Assembly: GCA_024790105.1 (NCBI GenBank)
Contig: GCA_024790105.1_3053.1
Strand: one strand, 5' to 3'
Length of the DNA stretch: 64,000 nt
Source of the DNA: a phage
Shown piece after piece: positions 3,316 through 61,380 of the stretch (the stretch's first letter is position 1; each line of letters begins with the position of its first letter). The position numbers and the translations under genes are program-made. The notes beneath the pieces were generated by a model, which saw only the letters and a program-made list of their open reading frames with translations, was not told the origin of the DNA and ran no database searches.

Positions 3316-3429
3316 TCACATAAATCCAAAGTAAACGTTTAATACATCAATCATTAAAACGATTGGGAATATACTCAAAACTATTAGTATTATAACTACA
3401 TTCCATATAGCTTTAACAATCTTTTTCAT
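3316..3429 (-). CDS. small membrane protein (37 aa)
   Basis: ATG 3429 directly after promoter-leader GGAGGAACAGAAA; MKKIVKAIWNVVIILIVLSIFPIVLMIDVLNVYFGFM. Confidence 0.45.
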   Translation of the reverse strand: MKKIVKAIWNVVIILIVLSIFPIVLMIDVLNVYFGFM

Positions 3430-3440
3430 TTTCTGTTCCT

Positions 3441-3487
3441 CCGTAGTTGATAGTTGTATAGTACCACAGAGGAACAGTCTTGTAAAC
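3441..3487 (-). promoter_or_regulatory. early promoter cassette
   Basis: GTTTAC (3487-3482), TGGTACTATACAACTATCAACTACGGAGG leader supplies the SD. Confidence 0.6.
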
Positions 3488-3493
3488 AACTTT

Positions 3494-3592
3494 TTAAAAA
3501 TATTCGTAATAAATGTGAATACCAATCACCACTGCTGAAACCTGTGCAACCCACCACGCACAAGCAATAAGTACAGAATTCAAAATTTTCAT
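3494..3592 (-). CDS. tiny hydrophobic ORF (32 aa)
   Basis: ATG 3592 overlapping upstream stop (ATGA); MKILNSVLIACAWWVAQVSAVVIGIHIYYEYF. Confidence 0.3.
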   Translation of the reverse strand: MKILNSVLIACAWWVAQVSAVVIGIHIYYEYF

Positions 3593-3675
3593 AATAACCT
3601 CATCACAAAAGTAAATGTTAAACAAATTAATGGAATACTAATTAACCAAACGAAACACCACCATAATGAACTCAT
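3589..3675 (-). CDS. tiny hydrophobic ORF (28 aa)
   Basis: ATG 3675 overlaps upstream stop (ATGA); MSSLWWCFVWLISIPLICLTFTFVMRLL. Confidence 0.3.
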   Translation of the reverse strand: MSSLWWCFVWLISIPLICLTFTFVMRLL

Positions 3676-3935
3676 AGCTCAATCTCAGCGATTTTCATTT
3701 CATTACTATTAATAGCCGCTTTAAGACTATCTGAAAGAATTACATTCCAATGGTCATTCATATGACCATTAACTAAGCGTGTAATTTCTTCGGGAGTTGA
3801 AAAATAAGGCGTATCAGACTCCCAATGCGATAATCCTAAGCGAGTATAAATCATACCTTCATCATCGCTAGAATATTCAACTGACATAAACTCATCAGTT
3901 ATTTTATGTTTAGCGTAATAAAATTTAAATTTCAT
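3672..3935 (-). CDS. hypothetical protein (87 aa)
   Basis: ATG 3935 after GGAGGAGCGGAAA leader. Confidence 0.65.
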   Translation of the reverse strand: MKFKFYYAKHKITDEFMSVEYSSDDEGMIYTRLGLSHWESDTPYFSTPEEITRLVNGHMNDHWNVILSDSLKAAINSNEMKIAEIEL

Positions 3936-3945
3936 TTTCCGCTCC

Positions 3946-3993
3946 TCCGTAGTTGATAGTTGTATAGTACCACAGTCCTTGTGGTATGTAAAC
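3946..3993 (-). promoter_or_regulatory. early promoter cassette
   Basis: GTTTAC 3993-3988, conserved -10/leader block. Confidence 0.6.
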
Positions 3994-4010
3994 CGTTTTG
4001 TGAAAATTTT

Positions 4011-4568
4011 TTAAATGGAAAGATACCATCCGTTGTAGTTGCTTTTTCTTACAACCTTACGAAGGTCTTCTCTATCACCGATGAACTTCGGAGTGTACTG
4101 GATGACACCTGGGTGAATTTCTTTAGTGTTGAATATAATTATACAGTCAGCGACCTGATGATTCAGAATGGGCCCTAGATTTATTCCAGAACCGTATGGA
4201 TACTCTCCGCTACATCCTGTTGTTACAGAAATCCAACGTGAGTCAGTTTGATGTGTCTTAACTTCTACACGAAGCCCGCAGTATCTTGGATGCGCCAATA
4301 CATCCCATGCGTATGTATACGGGTCATTAACGTCCTCTTGGCCTTTGTTAACATACCCGCTTAGCCAATCTGCTACAAAAAACTCTGCGTACACCGCGAT
4401 ACGGCATCTTTCGATAACTTCTGCCTTATCCTGATTTGGATTTTGTTTTAAAGAGTATCTTGCTGTATCAGCAATTTTGACCTTCATTTCACTAGTCAAG
4501 TCACTGTTAGATAGGGTAAATGATGGAATCTGAAATAGTCTCTGCAAACCCGGATTTGTTTTCTGCAT
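4011..4568 (-). CDS. denB: endonuclease IV (DenB)
   Basis: 185-aa ORF, ATG 4568 with AAGGAAAG SD; length and position match T4 denB. Confidence 0.8.
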   Translation of the reverse strand: MQKTNPGLQRLFQIPSFTLSNSDLTSEMKVKIADTARYSLKQNPNQDKAEVIERCRIAVYAEFFVADWLSGYVNKGQEDVNDPYTYAWDVLAHPRYCGLRVEVKTHQTDSRWISVTTGCSGEYPYGSGINLGPILNHQVADCIIIFNTKEIHPGVIQYTPKFIGDREDLRKVVRKSNYNGWYLSI

Positions 4569-12272: not shown

Positions 12273-12360
12273 TACAATTTCCTCATTAATTGAACAGTGG
12301 AGCGATGCGTTTCAGAAGAGTAGCAGCACCTTTGGCAAATTTTCCATTTTATTCTCCAAG

Positions 12361-12420
12361 TTGTTTTCTGTATCAGTAGTTGATATTGATATAGTACCAT
12401 AATCAACTACTGATGTATAT
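12361..12420 (-). promoter_or_regulatory. degenerate early-promoter cassette carrying an inverted repeat
   Basis: TCAGTAGTTGAT...ATCAACTACTGA palindrome flanking the -10-like block; lacks canonical GTTTAC. Confidence 0.3.
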
Positions 12421-12445
12421 AGTTTTATGAAAAAAAATTTAAACT

Positions 12446-13567: not shown

Positions 13568-14068
13568 TTATCTCATTTCAATAAAATCTACAAGTTCAGC
13601 ATGCGATTTGCGGAACATTACTTGGTGCCCGCCAATGATAACTTGATCATCTGGAACTTCGTATATAGCGAGATAAAATCCTTTAGAAGATAATTCTTCC
13701 CGCTCTTCTCGTGTGAACCATCTCATCATATCATATTCACTAGCGAAAGCAAAATGATAAAGAGCTATAAACCATCCTGGAATATGATATTCTACTCCAA
13801 CATAATCTTTCTTGAACTTAGTATTAATTACTATATTAGCGTTTTTAACTAATAGCTTATCTTCGTGTGGTAAAGGAATTCTTTTATTATTATCGCTATG
13901 GTGCATAAAATTAGGTCTGTCATAACCTACGTGTAATAACCACTCTTCGCTCCATGAATCTATTATACTCCTGTACGGCGTTATTTGAACACAAAGATTT
14001 CGACGTATTGTTATAGCATCTTCATAATTAAGAATACTAAAAGATGATTCAACACGATAAATTTTCAT
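13568..14068 (-). CDS. hypothetical protein (166 aa)
   Basis: ATG 14068 with GAGGATAATAAA SD. Confidence 0.65.
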   Translation of the reverse strand: MKIYRVESSFSILNYEDAITIRRNLCVQITPYRSIIDSWSEEWLLHVGYDRPNFMHHSDNNKRIPLPHEDKLLVKNANIVINTKFKKDYVGVEYHIPGWFIALYHFAFASEYDMMRWFTREEREELSSKGFYLAIYEVPDDQVIIGGHQVMFRKSHAELVDFIEMR

Positions 14069-14091
14069 TTTATTATCCTCAGTAGCTATGG

Positions 14092-14124
14092 TGTTATAAT
14101 ACCATAACTAACCGAGGAAGTAAA
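14092..14124 (-). promoter_or_regulatory. early promoter
   Basis: GTTTAC 14124-14119, -10 TATTATAA. Confidence 0.5.
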
Positions 14125-14131
14125 CAACTTT

Positions 14132-21407: not shown

Positions 21408-21644
21408 TTAACCACCTATTGCTGTAGGCGTAAACATTGCAGCATTCTTAGTTTTCCAAGTTGCTGCATCAGAAACTACAGTAGAATATGCCGCCTTTTC
21501 AGAAGGAAAGGTCTGATAATGAGAATCTGCAATACGGTGTTCATTTGAATATACATCAAATGCTACAGAAACTTCCATACCTTTAACTTCTTTGCCTTCA
21601 CCTGCTGGATGAGTAAAGGTCTTGATGTTAACGAAACCACCCAT
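21408..21644 (-). CDS. soc: small outer capsid protein Soc
   Basis: 78 aa, ATG 21644 with AAGGAG SD; late promoter TATAAATA 32 nt upstream; Soc-like sequence. Confidence 0.8.
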   Translation of the reverse strand: MGGFVNIKTFTHPAGEGKEVKGMEVSVAFDVYSNEHRIADSHYQTFPSEKAAYSTVVSDAATWKTKNAAMFTPTAIGG

Positions 21645-21675
21645 AATAAACTCCTTTGTTGTTTAATTACAAGTG

Positions 21676-21683
21676 TATTTATA
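21676..21683 (-). promoter_or_regulatory. late promoter TATAAATA for soc
   Basis: minus-strand TATAAATA (plus-strand tatttata) upstream of soc start. Confidence 0.6.
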
Positions 21684-21857
21684 TCAGTCTTCAATGAAAA
21701 CTTGTGCCAGGAATTCGTGTTCATCTTGAATTTGTTTATATAAAGCCATTACAGCATTTATATTAGAGCTATCTACTTTAAGTTGATAAGCATACCACTC
21801 GTATAAATTAATTAAAGCTTTTTGACGTCTAATAAATTCTTCTTTGGATATTTTCAT
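21684..21857 (-). CDS. small ORF (57 aa)
   Basis: ATG 21857 overlapping upstream stop (ATGA). Confidence 0.4.
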   Translation of the reverse strand: MKISKEEFIRRQKALINLYEWYAYQLKVDSSNINAVMALYKQIQDEHEFLAQVFIED

Positions 21858-22063
21858 TTTGAATGCTCTATAATTAATTTTAAGGCTTCTTCGCTGACAA
21901 AAATTTCATCAGGACCTTCTTCTACAACCCAATCAACCCAATCAACCGTACGAAGCTGATTAGATAAGAGCTCACATACGAGCTCTTTGTCATAATCTTT
22001 AAATAGCTGGTTAATACGTTTCTTGCGGGCTTTCTTAAGCTGGCGTTTATTTAAACGAGCCAT
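21854..22063 (-). CDS. hypothetical basic protein (69 aa)
   Basis: ATG 22063 with GAGGTTATTG SD; overlaps gene 56 stop. Confidence 0.55.
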   Translation of the reverse strand: MARLNKRQLKKARKKRINQLFKDYDKELVCELLSNQLRTVDWVDWVVEEGPDEIFVSEEALKLIIEHSK

Positions 22064-22581
22064 CAATAACCTCGGTCTTGACGTGCGAAATTTTCGGCAT
22101 TTTTCAGATAATAAAGTTTAAAGATTTCTTCAGCTGTAAGACCAAGACCCTGGAACATATTCAGAACGAAATGAAGAATATCAATCATTTCAAATTTAAT
22201 TTCTAATTGGTCTTGCGGAGACAGTTCATCGATACGACGATTTCGATATTCAGCATGTTGTGCTTTCCATGGCTTCCATACACTGCTAGCGGCTTTTTCG
22301 CCATTGCTCATACCACCAAGAGAAGTCAGAAGTTCGCGGAATTCATCATCAATATAGTCTTTCTGATTGCGCAGCCAATCAACAACTTCACCTGCGGTAG
22401 CCAAATCATCAGGATGACGGTTATATTCAGGTTTATCTTTAGCTAAACGAATCTGCAGAGATTTCTGCATGTCAAGCATTACCTGCAGCGGGTCTTTTTC
22501 ATCACCGAGAATATCCCAATATTCATTTTGAGCTTTATCAGCGCCTTCGATCAGTTGACTACATTCGTTAAAGTAAGCCAT
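22063..22581 (-). CDS. 56: dCTP pyrophosphatase gp56 (MazG-like)
   Basis: 172 aa from ATG 22581 (MAYFNECSQ...) with AAGGAAAAATA SD. Confidence 0.85.
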   Translation of the reverse strand: MAYFNECSQLIEGADKAQNEYWDILGDEKDPLQVMLDMQKSLQIRLAKDKPEYNRHPDDLATAGEVVDWLRNQKDYIDDEFRELLTSLGGMSNGEKAASSVWKPWKAQHAEYRNRRIDELSPQDQLEIKFEMIDILHFVLNMFQGLGLTAEEIFKLYYLKNAENFARQDRGY

Positions 22582-25834: not shown

Positions 25835-26128
25835 TTACTCACCTACCACTTCAGCGATGATATTTTTATTATTAAAGTTTTTATCGCAATACAGAACATA
25901 ATTATACTGCATTACACCACCAGACTTAAGCTGTTTTTGCACTTCAGCTTTCATTTCAGGACGATCACGCTTAACGATATTCATAATATCTGCTTCAATT
26001 TGAGTTTCAACCTCAGTCTGATCCGCAGTCATAGACCATTCGCACAAATCTTTATCATAACCTGCCATAGCAGGCTGAGCAGCACAAGAAGCCAAAGCAA
26101 AAATTGTAGCAAAGATAAATTTTTTCAT
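25835..26128 (-). CDS. sp: periplasmic protein Sp (spackle)-like, 97 aa with signal peptide
   Basis: ATG 26128 (MKKFIFATIFALASCAAQPAMA...) with GAGGAG SD; ORF-track start upstream. Confidence 0.7.
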   Translation of the reverse strand: MKKFIFATIFALASCAAQPAMAGYDKDLCEWSMTADQTEVETQIEADIMNIVKRDRPEMKAEVQKQLKSGGVMQYNYVLYCDKNFNNKNIIAEVVGE

Positions 26129-26151
26129 GATTAATCTCCTCAGTAGTTTAT

Positions 26152-26187
26152 GTTTATATAGTATCTCAATTTCCAACAAAAGTAAAC
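26152..26187 (-). promoter_or_regulatory. early promoter
   Basis: GTTTAC 26187-26182, -10 TACTATATA. Confidence 0.5.
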
Positions 26188-26448: not shown

Positions 26449-26631
26449 TTATCCTCGGCAATCCACTTCACATACTTTCTTGTCATCAATGAAAGCTTTA
26501 ACTAATGCTTTATTAACTTCAGCATATTGAGTAGTAGCCCATTGAACGTCATCTTTCATCATTGTGGTTTCTTTAGTAAACATGCTTTCATTCTTAAACC
26601 ACCCCATAAAAACTACCTTTACCAATTCCAT
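26449..26631 (-). CDS. dmd: Dmd (discriminator of mRNA degradation)-like, 60 aa
   Basis: ATG 26631 with AAGGAG SD; length and position upstream of gene 41. Confidence 0.7.
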   Translation of the reverse strand: MELVKVVFMGWFKNESMFTKETTMMKDDVQWATTQYAEVNKALVKAFIDDKKVCEVDCRG

Positions 26632-26659
26632 AACAATCTCCTTATTTAACCAACAAGAC

Positions 26660-26690
26660 TACTATACCATAGTCTTGTCAGCTTGTAAAC
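26660..26690 (-). promoter_or_regulatory. early promoter
   Basis: GTTTAC 26690-26685, -10 ATGGTATAG. Confidence 0.45.
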
Positions 26691-32309: not shown

Positions 32310-32690
32310 TCACTTAGTTAAATTTTTTACGCATGAATTATAAGAATTCACTACATACTCCATCGGAGCATTTTTACCAGTACGCCATTGGTAATTATTA
32401 GCCCAATTAGCCCAAAGTTCTGCACAGTAATTTTCAATTTTTTCTTCGCGTGTAATTACATCCGAATTACGATATGCTTGAGCAGATTCATCTGGACGAA
32501 TAGCTTCGTCAAAATTCGCCTGCATTTGTTCTACTGTTTGCTTTGGAGCTTCTTTATAACACTTGACATTAGGATTATAAAATTTGCTTGAACAGTTTAC
32601 AATTTTTCCTACATCAGACTGATTTACTACCGGTCCTTGAGCTACACAACCAGTAAGACCTAATGCAATAACCAAAATAGCGATTTTCAT
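32310..32690 (-). CDS. putative lipoprotein (126 aa)
   Basis: ATG 32690 with GGAGAATGAA SD; lipobox LTGC. Confidence 0.65.
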   Translation of the reverse strand: MKIAILVIALGLTGCVAQGPVVNQSDVGKIVNCSSKFYNPNVKCYKEAPKQTVEQMQANFDEAIRPDESAQAYRNSDVITREEKIENYCAELWANWANNYQWRTGKNAPMEYVVNSYNSCVKNLTK

Positions 32691-32708
32691 TTCATTCTCC
32701 AAATCCGT

Positions 32709-32757
32709 ATCAGTAGTTGATAGTTGTATAGTACCATAGAAGAACAGGGATGTAAAC
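32709..32757 (-). promoter_or_regulatory. early promoter cassette
   Basis: GTTTAC 32757-32752 with conserved -10/leader block. Confidence 0.6.
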
Positions 32758-32840
32758 AGTTTTGTGAAAAAAAAATTTTTAGGGAATCAAAAGGGTCCAG
32801 AATCATCTCTTTTTCATAAGTATAGATTTATATTACTTGT

Positions 32841-43846: not shown

Positions 43847-45047
43847 ATTTTGTAATAATGTCAAACTGTTCTTTAAAGCAGAAGCTTGAATCTTGGTGCT
43901 GATACAAAAATTCATATGCTTTTTCTCGCTCGCGGTCATAAAGAGCTCGGTCAGATGACAGTTCTTTAATACGTTCAAATGTTGATTCCATGTCATTTTC
44001 ATCAAACCAAATGATACCGCTATCATGCGAGGTCAAAGGAGTATTATCAACACGGAATTTTAAATTTTCGCCAGTAGATTTCCAAAATACCGGAATTGTT
44101 CCACATGCACCAAGCTCGAGATGAGTATATTCTAAAGAACGTTGCAGATATTTTTTATCCAACTTACTCAACTGATAACCAAAACCGGATTTACTCATGC
44201 GTTCAAGCATTTCGCTATTTACATAACGGTCAAGAATTTGCGTTGGCAAATTAGGAGCAATTTTAATTTGGTCTACTTGATGAAGACGATAATACTCGTA
44301 TGGAATTCCCTTTTCTTTAATAGGAATGAACGCTGGAGAACGTTCCAGACCTTCCATAATAGTACTTAGTCCTGCAGGTTTAAGATGTTTTTCGTGAAAA
44401 TCAAACATCTGATAAAAGCCTTTCCATGTAGTAGTACGACCAATCCAACGGTTGATATTCATGTTAATTTCAGAAACATCTTTCCAATAGGTTGATCGAA
44501 CCTTCGCAATATCCATAGGAGGCTGGAAGTTATATACGGTCGGTGCTTCTTCAATATCATCAAACAGAGAAACTGTTTCTGGATACCATTCTTTCATTAA
44601 AACTTTATTAAAATCACCATTATCAGAATGACTAAAAATAACATCAGCTCGACGAACAGTTTCTTCTAATCCCAAATTTCGGCGCAAAGAAAGAGAAGAA
44701 TGGTCATGCTGATAAACTACAACACGAACCGAAGGTTTAATGTTATCAATAATTTTTTTATAGTTATTGATGGTGTCTTCTTCAACCGAAGTAGCAGGAA
44801 CTGAATTGATAATTAGAATATCACAATCATTTACCAGCTTAAGTGTTTTATCATATTCTTTTGCCAATAAAACCGGAATTGAAAATGATTTATAATCATG
44901 CGCGCAATTACGAGTAAATGATTTATCTTTAGCATAAACCAAAGTTACTTCATGACCATTTTTAATAAACCAATCACGTTGCTCGAGTGAGAATTTTGTT
45001 ACACCACAACCTTCAAGACCTCGAGCCAGAAAAATGCATACTTTCAT
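43845..45047 (-). CDS. a-gt: DNA alpha-glucosyltransferase
   Basis: 400 aa; ATG 45047 with GAGGATATTA SD; recognised sequence. Confidence 0.9.
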   Translation of the reverse strand: MKVCIFLARGLEGCGVTKFSLEQRDWFIKNGHEVTLVYAKDKSFTRNCAHDYKSFSIPVLLAKEYDKTLKLVNDCDILIINSVPATSVEEDTINNYKKIIDNIKPSVRVVVYQHDHSSLSLRRNLGLEETVRRADVIFSHSDNGDFNKVLMKEWYPETVSLFDDIEEAPTVYNFQPPMDIAKVRSTYWKDVSEINMNINRWIGRTTTWKGFYQMFDFHEKHLKPAGLSTIMEGLERSPAFIPIKEKGIPYEYYRLHQVDQIKIAPNLPTQILDRYVNSEMLERMSKSGFGYQLSKLDKKYLQRSLEYTHLELGACGTIPVFWKSTGENLKFRVDNTPLTSHDSGIIWFDENDMESTFERIKELSSDRALYDREREKAYEFLYQHQDSSFCFKEQFDIITK

Positions 45048-45077
45048 TTAATATCCTCATTGTTTTGGTTTATTTTA

Positions 45078-57033: not shown

Positions 57034-57561
57034 TTATGCGAGTACCGTCTTTAACCGTTCTTCAAATTTCCGAAGAGTATTCTGGCGTTCAGCTCTTTGC
57101 TTTTTGTAAGTTTCAATACGCTCTGAAATGAGAGTGTATCGTTCATTTACTGATTCTTTCATAAAATCAGGAATTTCACGAGAAGCTTTAATCTCATCAA
57201 ATTTATCAATAACAGCTTGCTCTTCAGCAATTAAGTTATCATACATCAAAATATCTTTCTTGATGAACTCAATATCTTCTTGAGTTACACGAGATAATTT
57301 AGATGCTTTATCCTTTTTGTACTGCTCATTGGTGTCACGAGACCAGTGTAATGTACGATTTTTATTCGTATTCTTGTAAATTTCTACAATACCAATCTCA
57401 TCGATAATAACGATCCAATTCCAACGAGATTTGTAAATTTGTCCTCCATCAACAGTGATTTCACCTCCGATTGAGATGTCATTAAAGAACTTGCTTTGAG
57501 CTTCAGATTTAAATTTACCATCGTTATAATTTACCAGGTTGAAAATATCTTTAGCGTTCAT
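57034..57561 (-). CDS. hypothetical protein (175 aa)
   Basis: ATG 57561 after GGAGGAACAAAA leader. Confidence 0.65.
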   Translation of the reverse strand: MNAKDIFNLVNYNDGKFKSEAQSKFFNDISIGGEITVDGGQIYKSRWNWIVIIDEIGIVEIYKNTNKNRTLHWSRDTNEQYKKDKASKLSRVTQEDIEFIKKDILMYDNLIAEEQAVIDKFDEIKASREIPDFMKESVNERYTLISERIETYKKQRAERQNTLRKFEERLKTVLA

Positions 57562-57571
57562 TTTTGTTCCT

Positions 57572-57618
57572 CCGTAGTTGATAGTTGTATAGTACCACAG
57601 AGGAACGGTCTTGTAAAC
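57572..57618 (-). promoter_or_regulatory. early promoter cassette (near-identical copy of 3441-3487)
   Basis: GTTTAC 57618-57613 with conserved -10/leader. Confidence 0.6.
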
Positions 57619-57620
57619 AA

Positions 57621-57923
57621 CTAAAAGAAACTTCTTTCACAATTTTTTCCACTGAACCAAGCGCTCACTGCTTTCTTAGTCTCAGGAGCCGTGTTATCCA
57701 TAAACCACTCAAAGGCAGCCTTTTTATGATTCTGGAGAGCTTCTCGGGCTTTAATCTGCTCACGGTCTATTAACACTAACATATGAGCCTTTCTTGTCAC
57801 CAGGGGCTTCTTATGATTCTTGGAGTATTCCCAGTCATTTGTCCATCGCATTGTTGTTGCGAATTGAAGCACAGCTTCTTTAATCTTAGTTTCGTAAATT
57901 TCACGAGCCTTTGAGTATAACAT
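57621..57923 (-). CDS. hypothetical protein (100 aa)
   Basis: ATG 57923 with GGAGGT SD. Confidence 0.55.
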   Translation of the reverse strand: MLYSKAREIYETKIKEAVLQFATTMRWTNDWEYSKNHKKPLVTRKAHMLVLIDREQIKAREALQNHKKAAFEWFMDNTAPETKKAVSAWFSGKNCERSFF

Positions 57924-58025: not shown

Positions 58026-58994
58026 TTATTTCAGAAGAGTAACCTCAGCGATTTCTTGCCAACCGTTTTTGTCGGTCATAATAAAGTCAGCAAGATAAAG
58101 TGCAGTACGCAGTGAAACATTGCGTAAACGATTAACATTGACTTTCATCCATGATAATGCTTTATAAGTTTCTTCATCAGAAAGACCGCGCTTTTGCATC
58201 ATGTCAGTTGAAAGAATAACATCTTCAACCCTGACCATAATTTCTTCATTAGTGTGAACACCCAAATCCAAATAAACTGAGCGGGACACTAATGCTTGTA
58301 AATGTGGAGCAAGTTTAGTACCACGGTCTAATTCGCGGTCAATGTCAACGTTTGTGATAAAAACAATCGTTCCTTTAAATTCAAACTCACGCTCAATGCC
58401 TTTTTCTTCTAAGTAAGAAGATGCGGTGCTCCAGCAGACTTTACGGGTCTCTCCAGTGTCCAGAGCAGCTTTTAGAAGATTAAGAATGTCCATATCAGAG
58501 AAAACATCCACATCGTCAATCAAAAGGACAGAATTCTCTTCACGATTATTCCAGAGTTGTTCATAAAGACCGATACCGGAGATTTTACCGTTAATGCTTT
58601 TATATTCAATGTATCCAATATCATTTGCTTTATTTAAAGCTTTATCTAAAGAATACGTTTTACCAATACCCGCCGCACCAGAGATAATTAATGAACGAAT
58701 GTTTCCGTTAATAATACCATTCGTCATCATTCCCATAACATTAAATCTTTTATTAATGCGGGTTTTCATATCTTCATATGATTCTTTAACTTCTTCAACT
58801 TTTACACCATCATATGAAATGTCTGATTTGTAAACCCAAACACCGCGACGCTTACCGTCAATTTCAACAAAAACTTTACCATCTCCTTGTGCATCTACCG
58901 GAGCATTATCTGGGAACCATTCACCTAAGAGCTCAAAAGTTCCAGAGATTTCTTTACCGAAGTAGATACCCTTATTGATAGTTACAGTTTTCAT
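58026..58994 (-). CDS. P-loop ATPase (AAA+-like), 322 aa
   Basis: ATG 58994 with GGAGAATAAA SD; Walker A GAAGIGKT, Walker B VLLIDDVD. Confidence 0.7.
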   Translation of the reverse strand: MKTVTINKGIYFGKEISGTFELLGEWFPDNAPVDAQGDGKVFVEIDGKRRGVWVYKSDISYDGVKVEEVKESYEDMKTRINKRFNVMGMMTNGIINGNIRSLIISGAAGIGKTYSLDKALNKANDIGYIEYKSINGKISGIGLYEQLWNNREENSVLLIDDVDVFSDMDILNLLKAALDTGETRKVCWSTASSYLEEKGIEREFEFKGTIVFITNVDIDRELDRGTKLAPHLQALVSRSVYLDLGVHTNEEIMVRVEDVILSTDMMQKRGLSDEETYKALSWMKVNVNRLRNVSLRTALYLADFIMTDKNGWQEIAEVTLLK

Positions 58995-59010
58995 TTTATT
59001 CTCCAAATCT

Positions 59011-59061
59011 GTATCAGTAGTTGATAGTTGTATAGTACCATAAAGCTTTATGCTTGTAAAC
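59011..59061 (-). promoter_or_regulatory. early promoter cassette
   Basis: GTTTAC 59061-59056 with conserved -10/leader. Confidence 0.6.
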
Positions 59062-59070
59062 AGTTTTGTG

Positions 59071-59112
59071 AAAAAATTTTTGAAATAAAAAGGGGGACCT
59101 CTAGGGCCCCCT
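59071..59112 (-). terminator. rho-independent terminator
   Basis: GGGGGACC/GGGCCCCC hairpin plus U-run on minus strand. Confidence 0.55.
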
Positions 59113-59120
59113 TTATGCTT

Positions 59121-59606
59121 TTATTCCATTTCTATTATATGCATGTTCTTTTTGCTATCAAAATATATGTTTTTAACTGTTAACTCCGAATTAATTGGCA
59201 ATAAAAACTCTCTTTCATAATCTACCATACAAAGGTTATCATAAAGCTTGTTAAGCTTATCATCATCAGTTTGGCCAGATTCTTCAATTGCGATTAAATT
59301 TTCTAAAATGTCAATCATAGCAGTTGAATAGTCAAAAACGTTTGCATTTTTTAACACTACTAAAACATTAGTCATATAGCGTTCTGCAGCAAACGTTTCA
59401 GCTATATGAGACTCACTGCTAAAGGAAGTTATTCTTTTAAATTTGATTCTCCTATTAACTTCAAACTTATGAGATAGTACTTCCTCTATTGTAAGTCCTC
59501 TAAAAAGCACGTCTTTAATCTCAAGTTTGTCTTTAATGTAATCATTAACACGCTTATGATTAAAATCATTAATTTTGTTGCCAAGGCATTTCATTAAAAT
59601 ATGCAT
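59121..59606 (-). CDS. hypothetical protein (161 aa)
   Basis: ATG 59606 with AAGAGAAACACA SD. Confidence 0.6.
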   Translation of the reverse strand: MHILMKCLGNKINDFNHKRVNDYIKDKLEIKDVLFRGLTIEEVLSHKFEVNRRIKFKRITSFSSESHIAETFAAERYMTNVLVVLKNANVFDYSTAMIDILENLIAIEESGQTDDDKLNKLYDNLCMVDYEREFLLPINSELTVKNIYFDSKKNMHIIEME

Positions 59607-59649
59607 TGTGTTTCTCTTCAATTTTTAAAGAACAATTAATTAACTACAA

Positions 59650-59683
59650 ATATATTATAATATGCTTTATGATAGAAGTAAAC
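59650..59683 (-). promoter_or_regulatory. early promoter
   Basis: GTTTAC 59683-59678, -10 TATTATAATAT. Confidence 0.5.
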
Positions 59684-59700
59684 AACTTTGTGAAAAATTT

Positions 59701-59731
59701 TTGAAATAAAAAAGGGAGCCCGAAGGCTCCC
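59701..59731 (-). terminator. rho-independent terminator
   Basis: GGGAGCC-cgaa-GGCTCCC hairpin plus U-run on minus strand. Confidence 0.6.
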
Positions 59732-59733
59732 TA

Positions 59734-60727: not shown

Positions 60728-60916
60728 TTAACTACTCCACCTAATCATTTCAAGATATTGAACTAACTTAGCTTTAGATTTATCCAAATCCTTTTTAGCT
60801 GCTTCTATACCGTCGTATGAATATCCTTCACAATGCTCAACTGCTAATTGATATGAATCTATTTCAATATCACGTGCTAATTTAATGATTTTTTCAAACT
60901 GTTCGCATGTTAGCAT
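60728..60916 (-). CDS. hypothetical protein (62 aa)
   Basis: ATG 60916 with GAGAG SD. Confidence 0.55.
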   Translation of the reverse strand: MLTCEQFEKIIKLARDIEIDSYQLAVEHCEGYSYDGIEAAKKDLDKSKAKLVQYLEMIRWSS

Positions 60917-61101: not shown

Positions 61102-61289
61102 TATTCCACCACATATGAAAGAGAGAATATTGCACACGCCATGTGAGTTGCAACTTCATCACACATATTATAACGTTTCTTAAGAAGTTCTACAAGTTCT
61201 TCACTAGTAACTTCATCCATGTCGACGAAAAAATCACCATTAATGATGACGTAGATATTTCCTTCTTGATTGAGTGCTTCAATTTTCAT
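61101..61289 (-). CDS. hypothetical protein (62 aa)
   Basis: ATG 61289 with AAGAGGAG SD directly after promoter cassette. Confidence 0.55.
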
Positions 61290-61310
61290 GATGTTCTCCT
61301 CTTTATCCGA

Positions 61311-61347
61311 TAGTTGTATAGTACCACAGCTCAAACGGAAAGTAAAC
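61311..61347 (-). promoter_or_regulatory. early promoter cassette
   Basis: GTTTAC 61347-61342, TGGTACTATACAACTATC. Confidence 0.6.
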
Positions 61348-61353
61348 CGGTAA

Positions 61354-61380
61354 AATGAAAAAAGTCTCCCGAAGGAGACT
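61354..61380 (-). terminator. rho-independent terminator
   Basis: AGTCTCC-cgaa-GGAGACT hairpin plus U-run on minus strand. Confidence 0.6.

Follow-up and report, generated by a model that had tools for sequence, protein, structure and literature searches.

Recurring cassettes in the early region of a T4-like phage, very probably sigma-70 early promoters of the PeSL type

On the minus strand at positions 3431-3490, next to the small gene ndd.4, lies a block of about 60 bp that recurs at distant sites of the 64,000-nucleotide stretch of phage DNA analysed here (the window). What is this repeat, and why are copies that lie so far apart so alike? A reading made from the letters alone (the sequence-only reading) had proposed a family of at least eight near-identical early promoter/leader cassettes. 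The window belongs to a T4-like Tequatrovirus: it is about 95-97% identical to T4 and other Tequatrovirus genomes and runs from motA through rIIB/rIIA to tk. A 5-kb probe of the window matched 539 phage records, most of them at 90-99% identity. In T4 (AF158101) the colinear segment starts at 163.3 kb (motA), passes the end of the record at rIIB/rIIA (168.9 kb / position 1) and reaches tk at about 60.9 kb; individual blocks are 85-99% identical, and the early genes of the window lie on the minus strand.

Extent and layout of the repeat family

The minus strand contains seven near-identical copies of GTTTAC-N18-TACTATACAACTATC(AACTAC), together with a degenerate copy that is palindromic and a copy that has diverged further. 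The 29-mer TGGTACTATACAACTATCAACTACGGAGG matches this strand exactly at 3438-3466, 3944-3972 and 57569-57597 and, with three mismatches that all fall within its last five bases, at 300-328, 32708-32736 and 59012-59040; 100 dinucleotide-preserving shuffles yielded no match. The pattern GTTTAC-N14-20-TACTATA gives 8 matches on the minus strand against 0.03 expected, and a 19-mer core also gives 8, among them the degenerate copy (12381-12399) and a copy at 61308-61326. By these searches all eight copies listed by the sequence-only reading are present on the minus strand where it had placed them, and a further divergent member, missing from its list, lies at 26157-26187. The near-identity that it had noted between 3431-3490 and 57561-57620 extends over 57 of 58 bases, from AGTTGTTTAC to GGAACA, once the intervals are offset by one base; between this stretch and the ATG there are a single substitution and an indel of 1 nt.

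In the alignment of the nine copies GTTTAC, TGG and TACTAT are invariant (apart from ATATAC in the palindromic copy, 12419), the spacer is variable, and two leader classes, A and B, diverge after ATCAACTAC. The cassettes and the elements that adjoin them, all on the minus strand, are as follows.

276-378, minus: motA cassette; A/T-rich UP region, -35 GTTTAC 349-344, TGG and -10 TACTAT 325-320, predicted +1 at about 313, class-B leader ATCAACTACTGATAC, Shine-Dalgarno (SD) sequence GGAG 290-287, ATG 278-276
379-400, minus: intrinsic terminator adjoining the motA promoter upstream; AGGGAGAGCC-TCGG-CTCTCCCT, then a T-run
3427-3512, minus: ndd.4 cassette (the focal copy); UP region, -35 3487-3482, -10 3463-3458, predicted +1 at about 3451, class-A leader, SD GGAGG 3442-3438, ATG 3429-3427; ndd.4 is a 37-aa membrane peptide
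3933-4020, minus: orf87 cassette, 3´ of denB; -35 3993-3988, -10 3969-3964, class-A leader CGGAGGAGCGGAAAATG; putative promoter of orf87 (3672-3935)
12345-12445, minus: degenerate palindromic copy between motB and cef; -35 ATATAC, TGG and TACTAT 12396-12391, perfect 13-bp arms ATCAGTAGTTGAT / ATCAACTACTGAT around the -10, leader ending GGAGAATAAAATG
26126-26187, minus: divergent member 5´ of sp (spackle); GTTTAC-N18-TACTATATAAACATAAACTACTGAGGAG; T4 orthologue at 20.1 kb
32688-32790, minus: imm.1 cassette; UP region, -35 32757-32752, -10 32733-32728, class-B leader, SD GGAGAATGAAATG
57559-57640, minus: nrdC.8 cassette, twin of the ndd.4 copy; -35 57618-57613, -10 57594-57589, SD GGAGG, ATG 57561-57559
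58992-59111, minus: nrdC.10 cassette; terminator 59111-59093, UP region, -35 59061-59056, -10 59037-59032, class-B leader, SD GGAGAATAAAATG
59121-59732, minus: extra module absent from T4; terminator 59732-59713, UP region, early promoter with -35 59683-59678 and -10 TATAAT, gene (59606-59121) for a 161-aa ModB-like ADP-ribosyltransferase
61287-61380, minus: mobD.5-homologue cassette; terminator 61380-61363, -35 61347-61342, -10 61323-61318, leader diverging after ACAACTATC, SD GAGGAG; T4 orthologue at 58.78 kb

T4 has these blocks at the same sites. The motA block is identical there (163.67 kb, upstream of motA), and the palindromic copy is 100% identical over about 100 nt (motB/cef interval, about 6.6 kb); the others lie at ndd.6 (167.09 kb), ndd.4 (about 166.8 kb), imm.1 (27.08 kb), nrdC.8 (53.94 kb), nrdC.10 (55.38 kb), mobD.5 (58.78 kb) and sp (20.1 kb). 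Between the promoters of the window and the early promoters (Pe) of T4 nothing essential differs, only details: the T4 ndd.4 promoter carries TACCCT at -6 to -1, whereas that of the window carries ACAACT; the T4 denB-proximal promoter has the same spacer as its counterpart but a class-B leader and drives ndd.6 directly, whereas the window has a class-A leader and orf87; and the start of the spacer differs between the two imm.1 promoters.

The block marks a subset of a larger promoter set. At least ten other early-type promoters in the window have the -35/TGn/-10 frame in common with the family and lack the block at -6 to +9, and a stricter scan (GTTTAC or TGn plus 17-nt spacing) finds about 19 credible promoters of the early type on the minus strand, whereas the plus strand has practically none. 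A generic sigma-70 scan of this AT-rich DNA returned promoter-like matches no more often than shuffled sequence did (21 vs 19; 23 vs 23.6), so that the generic consensus by itself carries no information; significance attaches to the extended family pattern alone. As judged by alignment and pattern searches, the repeat family is a subfamily of T4 early promoters that additionally share -6 to +9.

Minus-strand hairpin terminators are found at 400-379, 59111-59093, 59732-59713 and 61380-61363. Terminators lie directly 5´ of five promoters (348, 59060, 61346, 59682 and 21365), and several are of the C(UUCG)G type. The sequence-only reading had several copies followed by a shared AT-rich spacer plus hairpin terminator. 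The hairpins do exist at the sites it cited, but, read in the sense of transcription, they stand ahead of the promoters rather than behind them, and the one at 59680-59731 has to be removed from the listed copies, as it belongs to the separate promoter with the -10 TATAAT.

Promoter elements, leaders and RegB sites

The published T4 early promoter, used as a search consensus by Nolan et al. 2006, has GTTTAC at -36 to -31, an A-rich stretch at -40 to -44, a GT-rich stretch before -12, A-11 and T-7 (PMC1524935), and Hinton 2010 describes these promoters as "UP/-35/TGn/-10" with additional consensus regions (PMC2988021). The copies in the window show the same layout. The -35 element GTTTAC(A/T) occurs in every copy except 12419, with 17 nt from TTTAC(A/T) to the -10 hexamer; TGG-TACTAT, which is present in all core copies, combines an extended -10 (TGn) with a hexamer carrying A-11 and T-7; and the sequence directly 5´ of the -35 reads ...AAAATTTTTTCACAAAAC(G/T) or is an A/T-rich variant of it, as is typical of an UP region. 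In a MotA-dependent middle promoter the box (a/t)(a/t)(a/t)TGCTTtA, centred at -30, replaces the -35 element (PMC1524935); the copies here have GTTTAC at -36 and no TGCTT at -30. Another early-type promoter of the window, 14124, is the orthologue of T4 P8.1, which has been dissected by mutation. A search of the available literature for genome-wide mapping of T4 start sites found nothing relevant.

With GTTTAC at -36, the predicted transcription start is the A of ATCAACTAC, which makes most of what the sequence-only reading called the leader a part of the promoter (-15 to -1), followed by nine transcribed bases. On the minus strand the cassette would thus begin with an optional GC-rich tetraloop terminator that closes the upstream unit, followed by an A/T-rich UP region that would be contacted by the alpha C-terminal domains of RNA polymerase. 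GTTTAC(A/T) at -36 to -30, an 18-nt variable stretch (-30 to -13) ending in TGG as the extended -10, TACTAT at -12 to -7, ACAACT at -6 to -1 and the predicted A start would come next, and the short leader ATCAACTAC would run into the SD and ATG. By analogy with T4 biology, the host polymerase would fire these promoters immediately after infection. T4 early promoters out-compete host promoters, and Alt, by ADP-ribosylating the alpha subunit of the polymerase, stimulates some of them (PMC2988021).

The copies stand immediately 5´ of an SD and ATG, on the strand of the early genes, and are orthologous to the promoters of T4 early genes. The proposal of early promoter and leader cassettes is thereby upheld: the window is T4-like, blocks orthologous to those of T4 precede early genes on the same strand, and the published architecture is matched. 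With function transferred from T4, RB49 and PST, the repeats are very probably early promoters (Pe) of a T4-like phage that depend on sigma-70 and come in PeSL (promoter-early stem-loop) cassettes.

Every cassette ends with an SD and the ATG of the downstream gene, but the shared block supplies the SD in one leader class only. After ATCAACTAC, the class-A leader continues GGAGG...ATG (copies 3463, 3969 and 57594) and the class-B leader TGATAC...GGAG...ATG (copies 325, 12396, 32733 and 59037). The proposal that the conserved leader provides the SD therefore stands for the three CGGAGG copies and fails for the CTGATAC copies, in which the SD (GGAG) lies 10-20 nt farther downstream than the shared block.

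The SDs also resemble targets of the RegB/S1 endonuclease, which cleaves single-stranded GGA(G) followed by an A-rich sequence, with the 11-nt consensus GGAGAAUAAAA (Durand et al. 2006, PMC1702504). This consensus is contained exactly in the 3´ ends of class-B leaders (GGAGAATAAAATG): it is exact in the leaders of 59037 and 12396 and has one mismatch in that of 32733 (GGAGAATGAAA), while the class-A counterpart reads GGAGGAACAGA. In T4 the motA RNA is a good RegB substrate, and the nrdC.8 SD shows moderate cleavage only (PMC1702504, PMC3014915). By extension from T4, the GGAG-type SDs would be RegB/S1 targets through which the early mRNAs are later inactivated.

Gene exchange at the cassettes

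Arbiol et al. 2010 defined the PeSL in RB49/phi1 as a composite in which an AT-rich region and a strong promoter of the sigma-70 type are combined with a stem-loop, an SD and an ATG; such elements accumulate in hyperplastic regions, serve as crossover points for indels and replacements, and yield mini-circles (PMC2839356). Comeau et al. 2014 extended the concept to T4 versus PST and to KVP40/nt-1, with the T4/PST consensus TTTACW-N17-TAYWAT (PMC4122927). The worked T4/PST example, in which ndd.4/ndd.5 are exchanged for other ORFs (PMC4122927), concerns the very locus at which the focal copy lies. In GenBank records of relatives (fPS-90) the equivalent positions already bear the annotations "predicted early promoter" and "terminator". 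Four copies (3486, 3992, 32756 and 57617) lack a terminator hairpin directly upstream, so that by the PST definition they are incomplete PeSLs.

Rearrangements between copies in related genomes, which the sequence-only reading had suggested looking for, are already published for T4/PST, including ndd, and we reproduced them at two slots of the window, where indels or replacements between close relatives have their junctions in a cassette. At the nrdC.11/nrdC.10 slot there are at least four alleles: T4 is empty (terminator, UP region, promoter, nrdC.10), KMB22 has a 66-aa gene, fPS-90 has two genes, and the window has the gene for the 161-aa protein, an allele found in only 42 of 524 records. 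The upstream junctions fall inside the cassette, at ACTATCAA| or GTTTAC|. Since the insert junction of KMB22 and fPS-90 lies at ACTATCAA|, within the conserved block, the nrdC.10-type promoter would now drive the insert. The extra module of the window (59121-59732) is flanked by repeats of CCCTTTTT(T)ATTTCAAAAATTTTT(T)CACAAA-N3-GTTTAC. Three alleles are seen at the denB/ndd.6 slot: T4 lacks extra genes, the window has orf87 with a class-A leader, and REP4 has orf68 and then orf87 behind a class-B leader; here the upstream junction comes directly after the common ATCAACT(AC) leader block.

Smaller exchanges are visible as well. The T4 imm.1 promoter is chimeric, with a class-A spacer (as in ndd.4/nrdC.8) ahead of a class-B leader, and among ndd.4 orthologues the hexamer at -6 to -1 switches en bloc between ACAACT and TACCCT. 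As the comparison with relatives shows, blocks of 24-100 nt that recur across the early region act as homology patches at which genes are inserted, deleted and swapped, and short tracts are exchanged between promoters. Over the whole window, 5 of 37 alignment breakpoints against T4 fall inside cassettes that cover 3.9% of it (binomial p = 0.014), a modest enrichment that is confounded by the intergenic position of the cassettes, where indels are tolerated anyway. Many differences between the window and T4 sit at homing-endonuclease genes, such as mobB and mobD, which are present in T4 and absent here.

Near-identity over -15 to +9 might instead reflect independent purifying selection for promoter strength at each site, with no exchange and no role as recombination substrate. 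T4 early promoters do have consensus regions beyond the canonical elements (PMC2988021), the block is kept between T4 and the window at most sites, and the spacer, which is presumably less constrained, differs among most copies. However, the ndd.4/nrdC.8 pair also shares its unconstrained spacer and SD region (57/58 bases), the T4 imm.1 promoter joins the spacer of that pair to another leader, the -6 to -1 hexamer flips at one locus between two alleles that differ at four positions, and the upstream junctions of alternative gene inserts lie inside the block; these en-bloc patterns point to exchange rather than site-by-site selection. The block is also absent from the ten or more other early-type promoters noted above, which indicates that this promoter class does not require it. 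We consider selection by itself an improbable explanation. Far less probable still is that the repeats, instead of being promoters, are copies of a small mobile element, either MITE-like or the target of a homing endonuclease, or else operators of a DNA-binding phage regulator. Dispersed, near-identical and indel-associated copies would suit such an origin, but all of them are oriented with the early genes directly 5´ of an SD and ATG, they match the sigma-70 frame with TGn, and neither terminal inverted repeats nor target-site duplications are seen. A common operator is excluded by the inverted repeats around the -10, whose sequence changes from promoter to promoter, and Rfam, searched with the whole window at gathering thresholds, matched no family. 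We rejected the mobile-element, operator and MotA-box readings on orientation, the want of common arm sequences and the lack of TGCTT at -30. Early promoters whose shared blocks are exchanged between sites remain the preferred reading of the family.

Predicted hairpins around the -10 region and the closest known systems

The two nearly identical copies share one more property, a spacer complementary to their own SD. In folds of the RNA from -36 to the ATG, the spacer of the ndd.4 copy (3477-3463) pairs with its leader and SD (3447-3433) in a 15-bp hairpin (-23.2 kcal/mol, z -5.2), and the spacer-SD stem of the nrdC.8 copy (57617) has 13 bp (-19.4 kcal/mol, z -4.1). In both, the loop holds the -10, and GGAGG belongs to the 3´ arm. 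Stems around the -10 also occur at 14124 (z -5.6), 26689 (z -4.8) and the palindromic copy 12419 (z -5.0, -20.2 kcal/mol), and no such stem was found when the motA, nrdC.10, imm.1 and orf87 cassettes were folded (z -0.6 to +1.0). The stem-loop of a PeSL is thus represented by upstream terminators at 348, 59060 and 61346 and by stems overlapping the -10 at 3486, 57617 and 12419; copies 3992 and 32756 have neither kind.

A hairpin around the -10 is not an undescribed feature, as we had at one point considered, because promoter-overlapping stem-loops are already reported in PMC2839356, where they are read as terminators or attenuators and one of them lowered the expression of a reporter to much the same extent as a strong terminator did. 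The predicted ndd.4/nrdC.8 hairpin is an instance of the PeSL subclass in which the stem-loop overlaps the -10 box. Because the spacer is complementary to the SD, a transcript coming from upstream would fold into a hairpin that takes in both the -10 region and the SD, and a transcript begun at the promoter itself would lack the 5´ arm. Sequestration of the SD is our addition from the folding model and may stand beside the published role, which is to attenuate upstream transcription.

We surveyed early promoters pooled from the window, T4, 38 IMG/VR matches and 51 metagenome stretches. Spacer-leader complementarity with z < -3 is present in 43 of 157 unique promoters, or in 13 of 55 loci once orthologues are collapsed, and the 43 positive promoters represent 12 distinct arm sequences. 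The antisense RNA is the less stable of the two in all positive cases (mean -13.8 kcal/mol, against -19.1 for the sense RNA). Within the hairpin class of the focal copy, 95.6% of cells are paired, compared with 37-58% in slid registers, while the shuffle control was uninformative for this class. When the 5´ and 3´ halves of promoters were exchanged among promoters, long stems proved to be only about 2-fold in excess. Terminator-preceded promoters seemed to avoid the hairpin among the 157 sequences (Fisher p = 0.0009), but this was an artefact of counting orthologues separately, as p = 0.71 for the 55 loci, and we dropped the association.

Does the inverted repeat between spacer and SD serve mainly as a translational gate, in which read-through RNA hides the SD and the RegB site, as an early-promoter counterpart of the hairpins of e, soc, 49 and I-TevI? 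Late promoters inside SD-sequestering hairpins provide a precedent (PMC3014915), and the stem z-scores of -4 to -5.6, together with 12 arm sequences across classes that keep the structure and not the sequence, count in favour of a gate. The SD lies within the stem in 24 of the 43 positive promoters, but in about half the stem stops short of it. Changes at the four variable stem positions of the focal class all keep pairing through G-U, as a gate would have it, and the sense strand is always the more stable one; yet these changes are one-sided, with no compensatory double substitutions in the class. The roughly 2-fold excess in the permutation control, the loss of the link with read-through opportunity once orthologues are collapsed, and the published reading of such stem-loops as terminators or attenuators (PMC2839356) also speak against it. 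A mainly translational gate is accordingly a tentative possibility, on which we lean slightly to the side of doubt. That read-through translation and RegB access are blocked in parallel to the late-promoter hairpins is, by the same analogy, doubtful to about the same degree or a little more so. The wider proposition, that at about a quarter of Tequatrovirus early-promoter loci the spacer evolved to pair with its own SD, maybe as a translational insulator, strikes us as unlikely, though worth stating. Promoter-overlapping attenuator stems of the PeSL type remain the reading that we carry forward.

If the insulator existed, each small early gene would depend for its expression on its own immediate-early promoter alone, with no product made from read-through or middle-mode transcripts; the attenuator role of PeSLs would thereby be extended, and the shut-off of early protein synthesis, which is poorly understood, could be due in part to it. 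What may be new is that such stems occur in the T4 group proper, that half of them include the SD, and that they may block read-through translation and RegB access. What the sequence-only reading correctly recognised is the chief regulatory grammar of the early region of T4 (early promoters, PeSL cassettes, RegB sites), which is already known, and both promoter function and the role as recombination linker are in the literature for the T4-type group and for the ndd locus. For annotation, the cassettes mark transcription-unit boundaries and likely accessory-gene slots, one of which holds a rare ModB-like ADP-ribosyltransferase here. The pairing of spacer and SD, which predicts promoter-specific translation, is the only thread that might add knowledge.

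Among known systems the cassettes stand closest to the T4 early promoters (PMC2988021, PMC1524935), with which they share GTTTAC, the UP region, TGn, A-11/T-7, extra conserved positions and their location at early genes. They resemble PeSLs (PMC2839356, PMC4122927) in their composite layout, clustering in variable regions, junctions inside cassettes and stem-loops either upstream of the promoter or overlapping the -10 box, and the ndd locus is itself a published example. Unlike PeSLs, four copies of the family have no stem-loop directly upstream, which is where the 2014 paper places it for T4/PST; promoter-overlapping stems have been published only for the RB49 group and without a link to the SD, whereas here they contain it. 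The likeness to the RegB/S1 sites of T4 early mRNAs (PMC1702504), among which motA and nrdC.8 are named substrates, lies in the class-B leaders ending GGAGAATAAAA; it is limited to the 3´ end of the cassette, where the sites are predicted from sequence. With the SD-sequestering hairpins of T4 e, soc, 49 and I-TevI (PMC3014915) the predicted stems have in common a 5´ arm before the start and a 3´ arm over the SD, so that ribosomes would have access to the proximal transcript only. Those hairpins, however, belong to late promoters and delay expression, whereas the hairpin predicted here overlaps an early promoter.

Probable sequence exchange between paralogous early promoters

At two of the repeated early-promoter cassettes, short sequence blocks vary between the window and T4 (the ndd.4 and imm.1 promoters), and a degenerate copy lies between motB and cef.
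3452-3457: positions -6 to -1 of the ndd.4 promoter
32727-32757: spacer of the imm.1 promoter
12345-12420, minus strand: degenerate cassette copy in the motB-cef interval (T4 counterpart at ~6.5-6.6 kb, L001)

The ndd.4 promoter carries ACAACT at positions -6 to -1 in the window, and TACCCT or TACTCT in T4 (L002) and others; the hexamer was also compared at L007, L008, L013, L063 and L073. The ndd.4 alleles switch en bloc while the flanking sequence is unchanged, which suggests short-tract conversion between paralogous promoters. At the imm.1 promoter, the T4 spacer (27.08 kb, L003) is AAGACTGTTCTTCCATGG, of the ndd.4/nrdC.8 type, and that of the window is ATCCCTGTTCTTCTATGG; both genomes have a class-B leader (TGATAC...GGAG...ATG) at this promoter. 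The imm.1 and ndd.6 leaders are similar up to and including the first four codons (ATGAAAATCGCT). In the motB-cef copy, the -10 is flanked by perfect 13-bp arms (ATCAGTAGTTGAT and ATCAACTACTGAT) and the -35 is degenerate (ATATAC). This copy is 100% identical to T4 across ~100 nt, with diverging flanks, and is followed downstream by only a tiny ORF and then cef.

Gene content that differs from T4

59121-59606, minus strand: accessory gene of the extra cassette module, encoding 161 aa
3672-3935, minus strand: orf87, between the denB-proximal promoter and ndd.6 (PHROG 2390, unknown function)
21414-22076: map gap against T4 15.3-16.3 kb
45038-45063: map gap against T4 37.8-38.7 kb
60733-60735: map gap against T4 56.4-58.2 kb

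The 161-aa product hits PHROG 832 with E = 9e-24 (annotated 'RNA polymerase ADP-ribosylase') and shares 30% identity over 141 aa with T4 ModB (E = 2e-14), with which its R, S-x-S and E-x-E-like motifs line up as judged by eye. A Pfam search gave no match for this product, and the gene is present in only 42 of 524 matching phage records. orf87 is missing from T4 and RB3, and from a small number of further phages. Because a 541-bp query containing orf87 is at least 80% covered in 419 of the 507 matching records, T4 represents the minority (deleted) form at the denB/ndd.6 slot. Several further gaps in the window-T4 map fall at T4 homing-endonuclease genes that are missing or replaced in the window (segF; mobB; mobD with mobD.1-2a); the break at 21414 is the only one that adjoins an early-promoter cassette.

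Complementarity between spacer and leader

The -35/-10 spacer is complementary to the region from -6 to the ATG in 13 of 55 early-promoter loci from T4-like sequences (loci span L004-L095), including four sites in the window.
3425-3487, minus strand: spacer-leader complementarity
57558-57618, minus strand: the same
14062-14125, minus strand: the same
26630-26690, minus strand: the same

Across the T4-like loci, the stems comprise 12 distinct arm sequences, are in every case more stable in the sense than in the antisense orientation, and enclose the SD in approximately half of the cases. They are similar to the PeSL subclass of RB49 and phi1, in which a stem-loop overlaps the -10 box.
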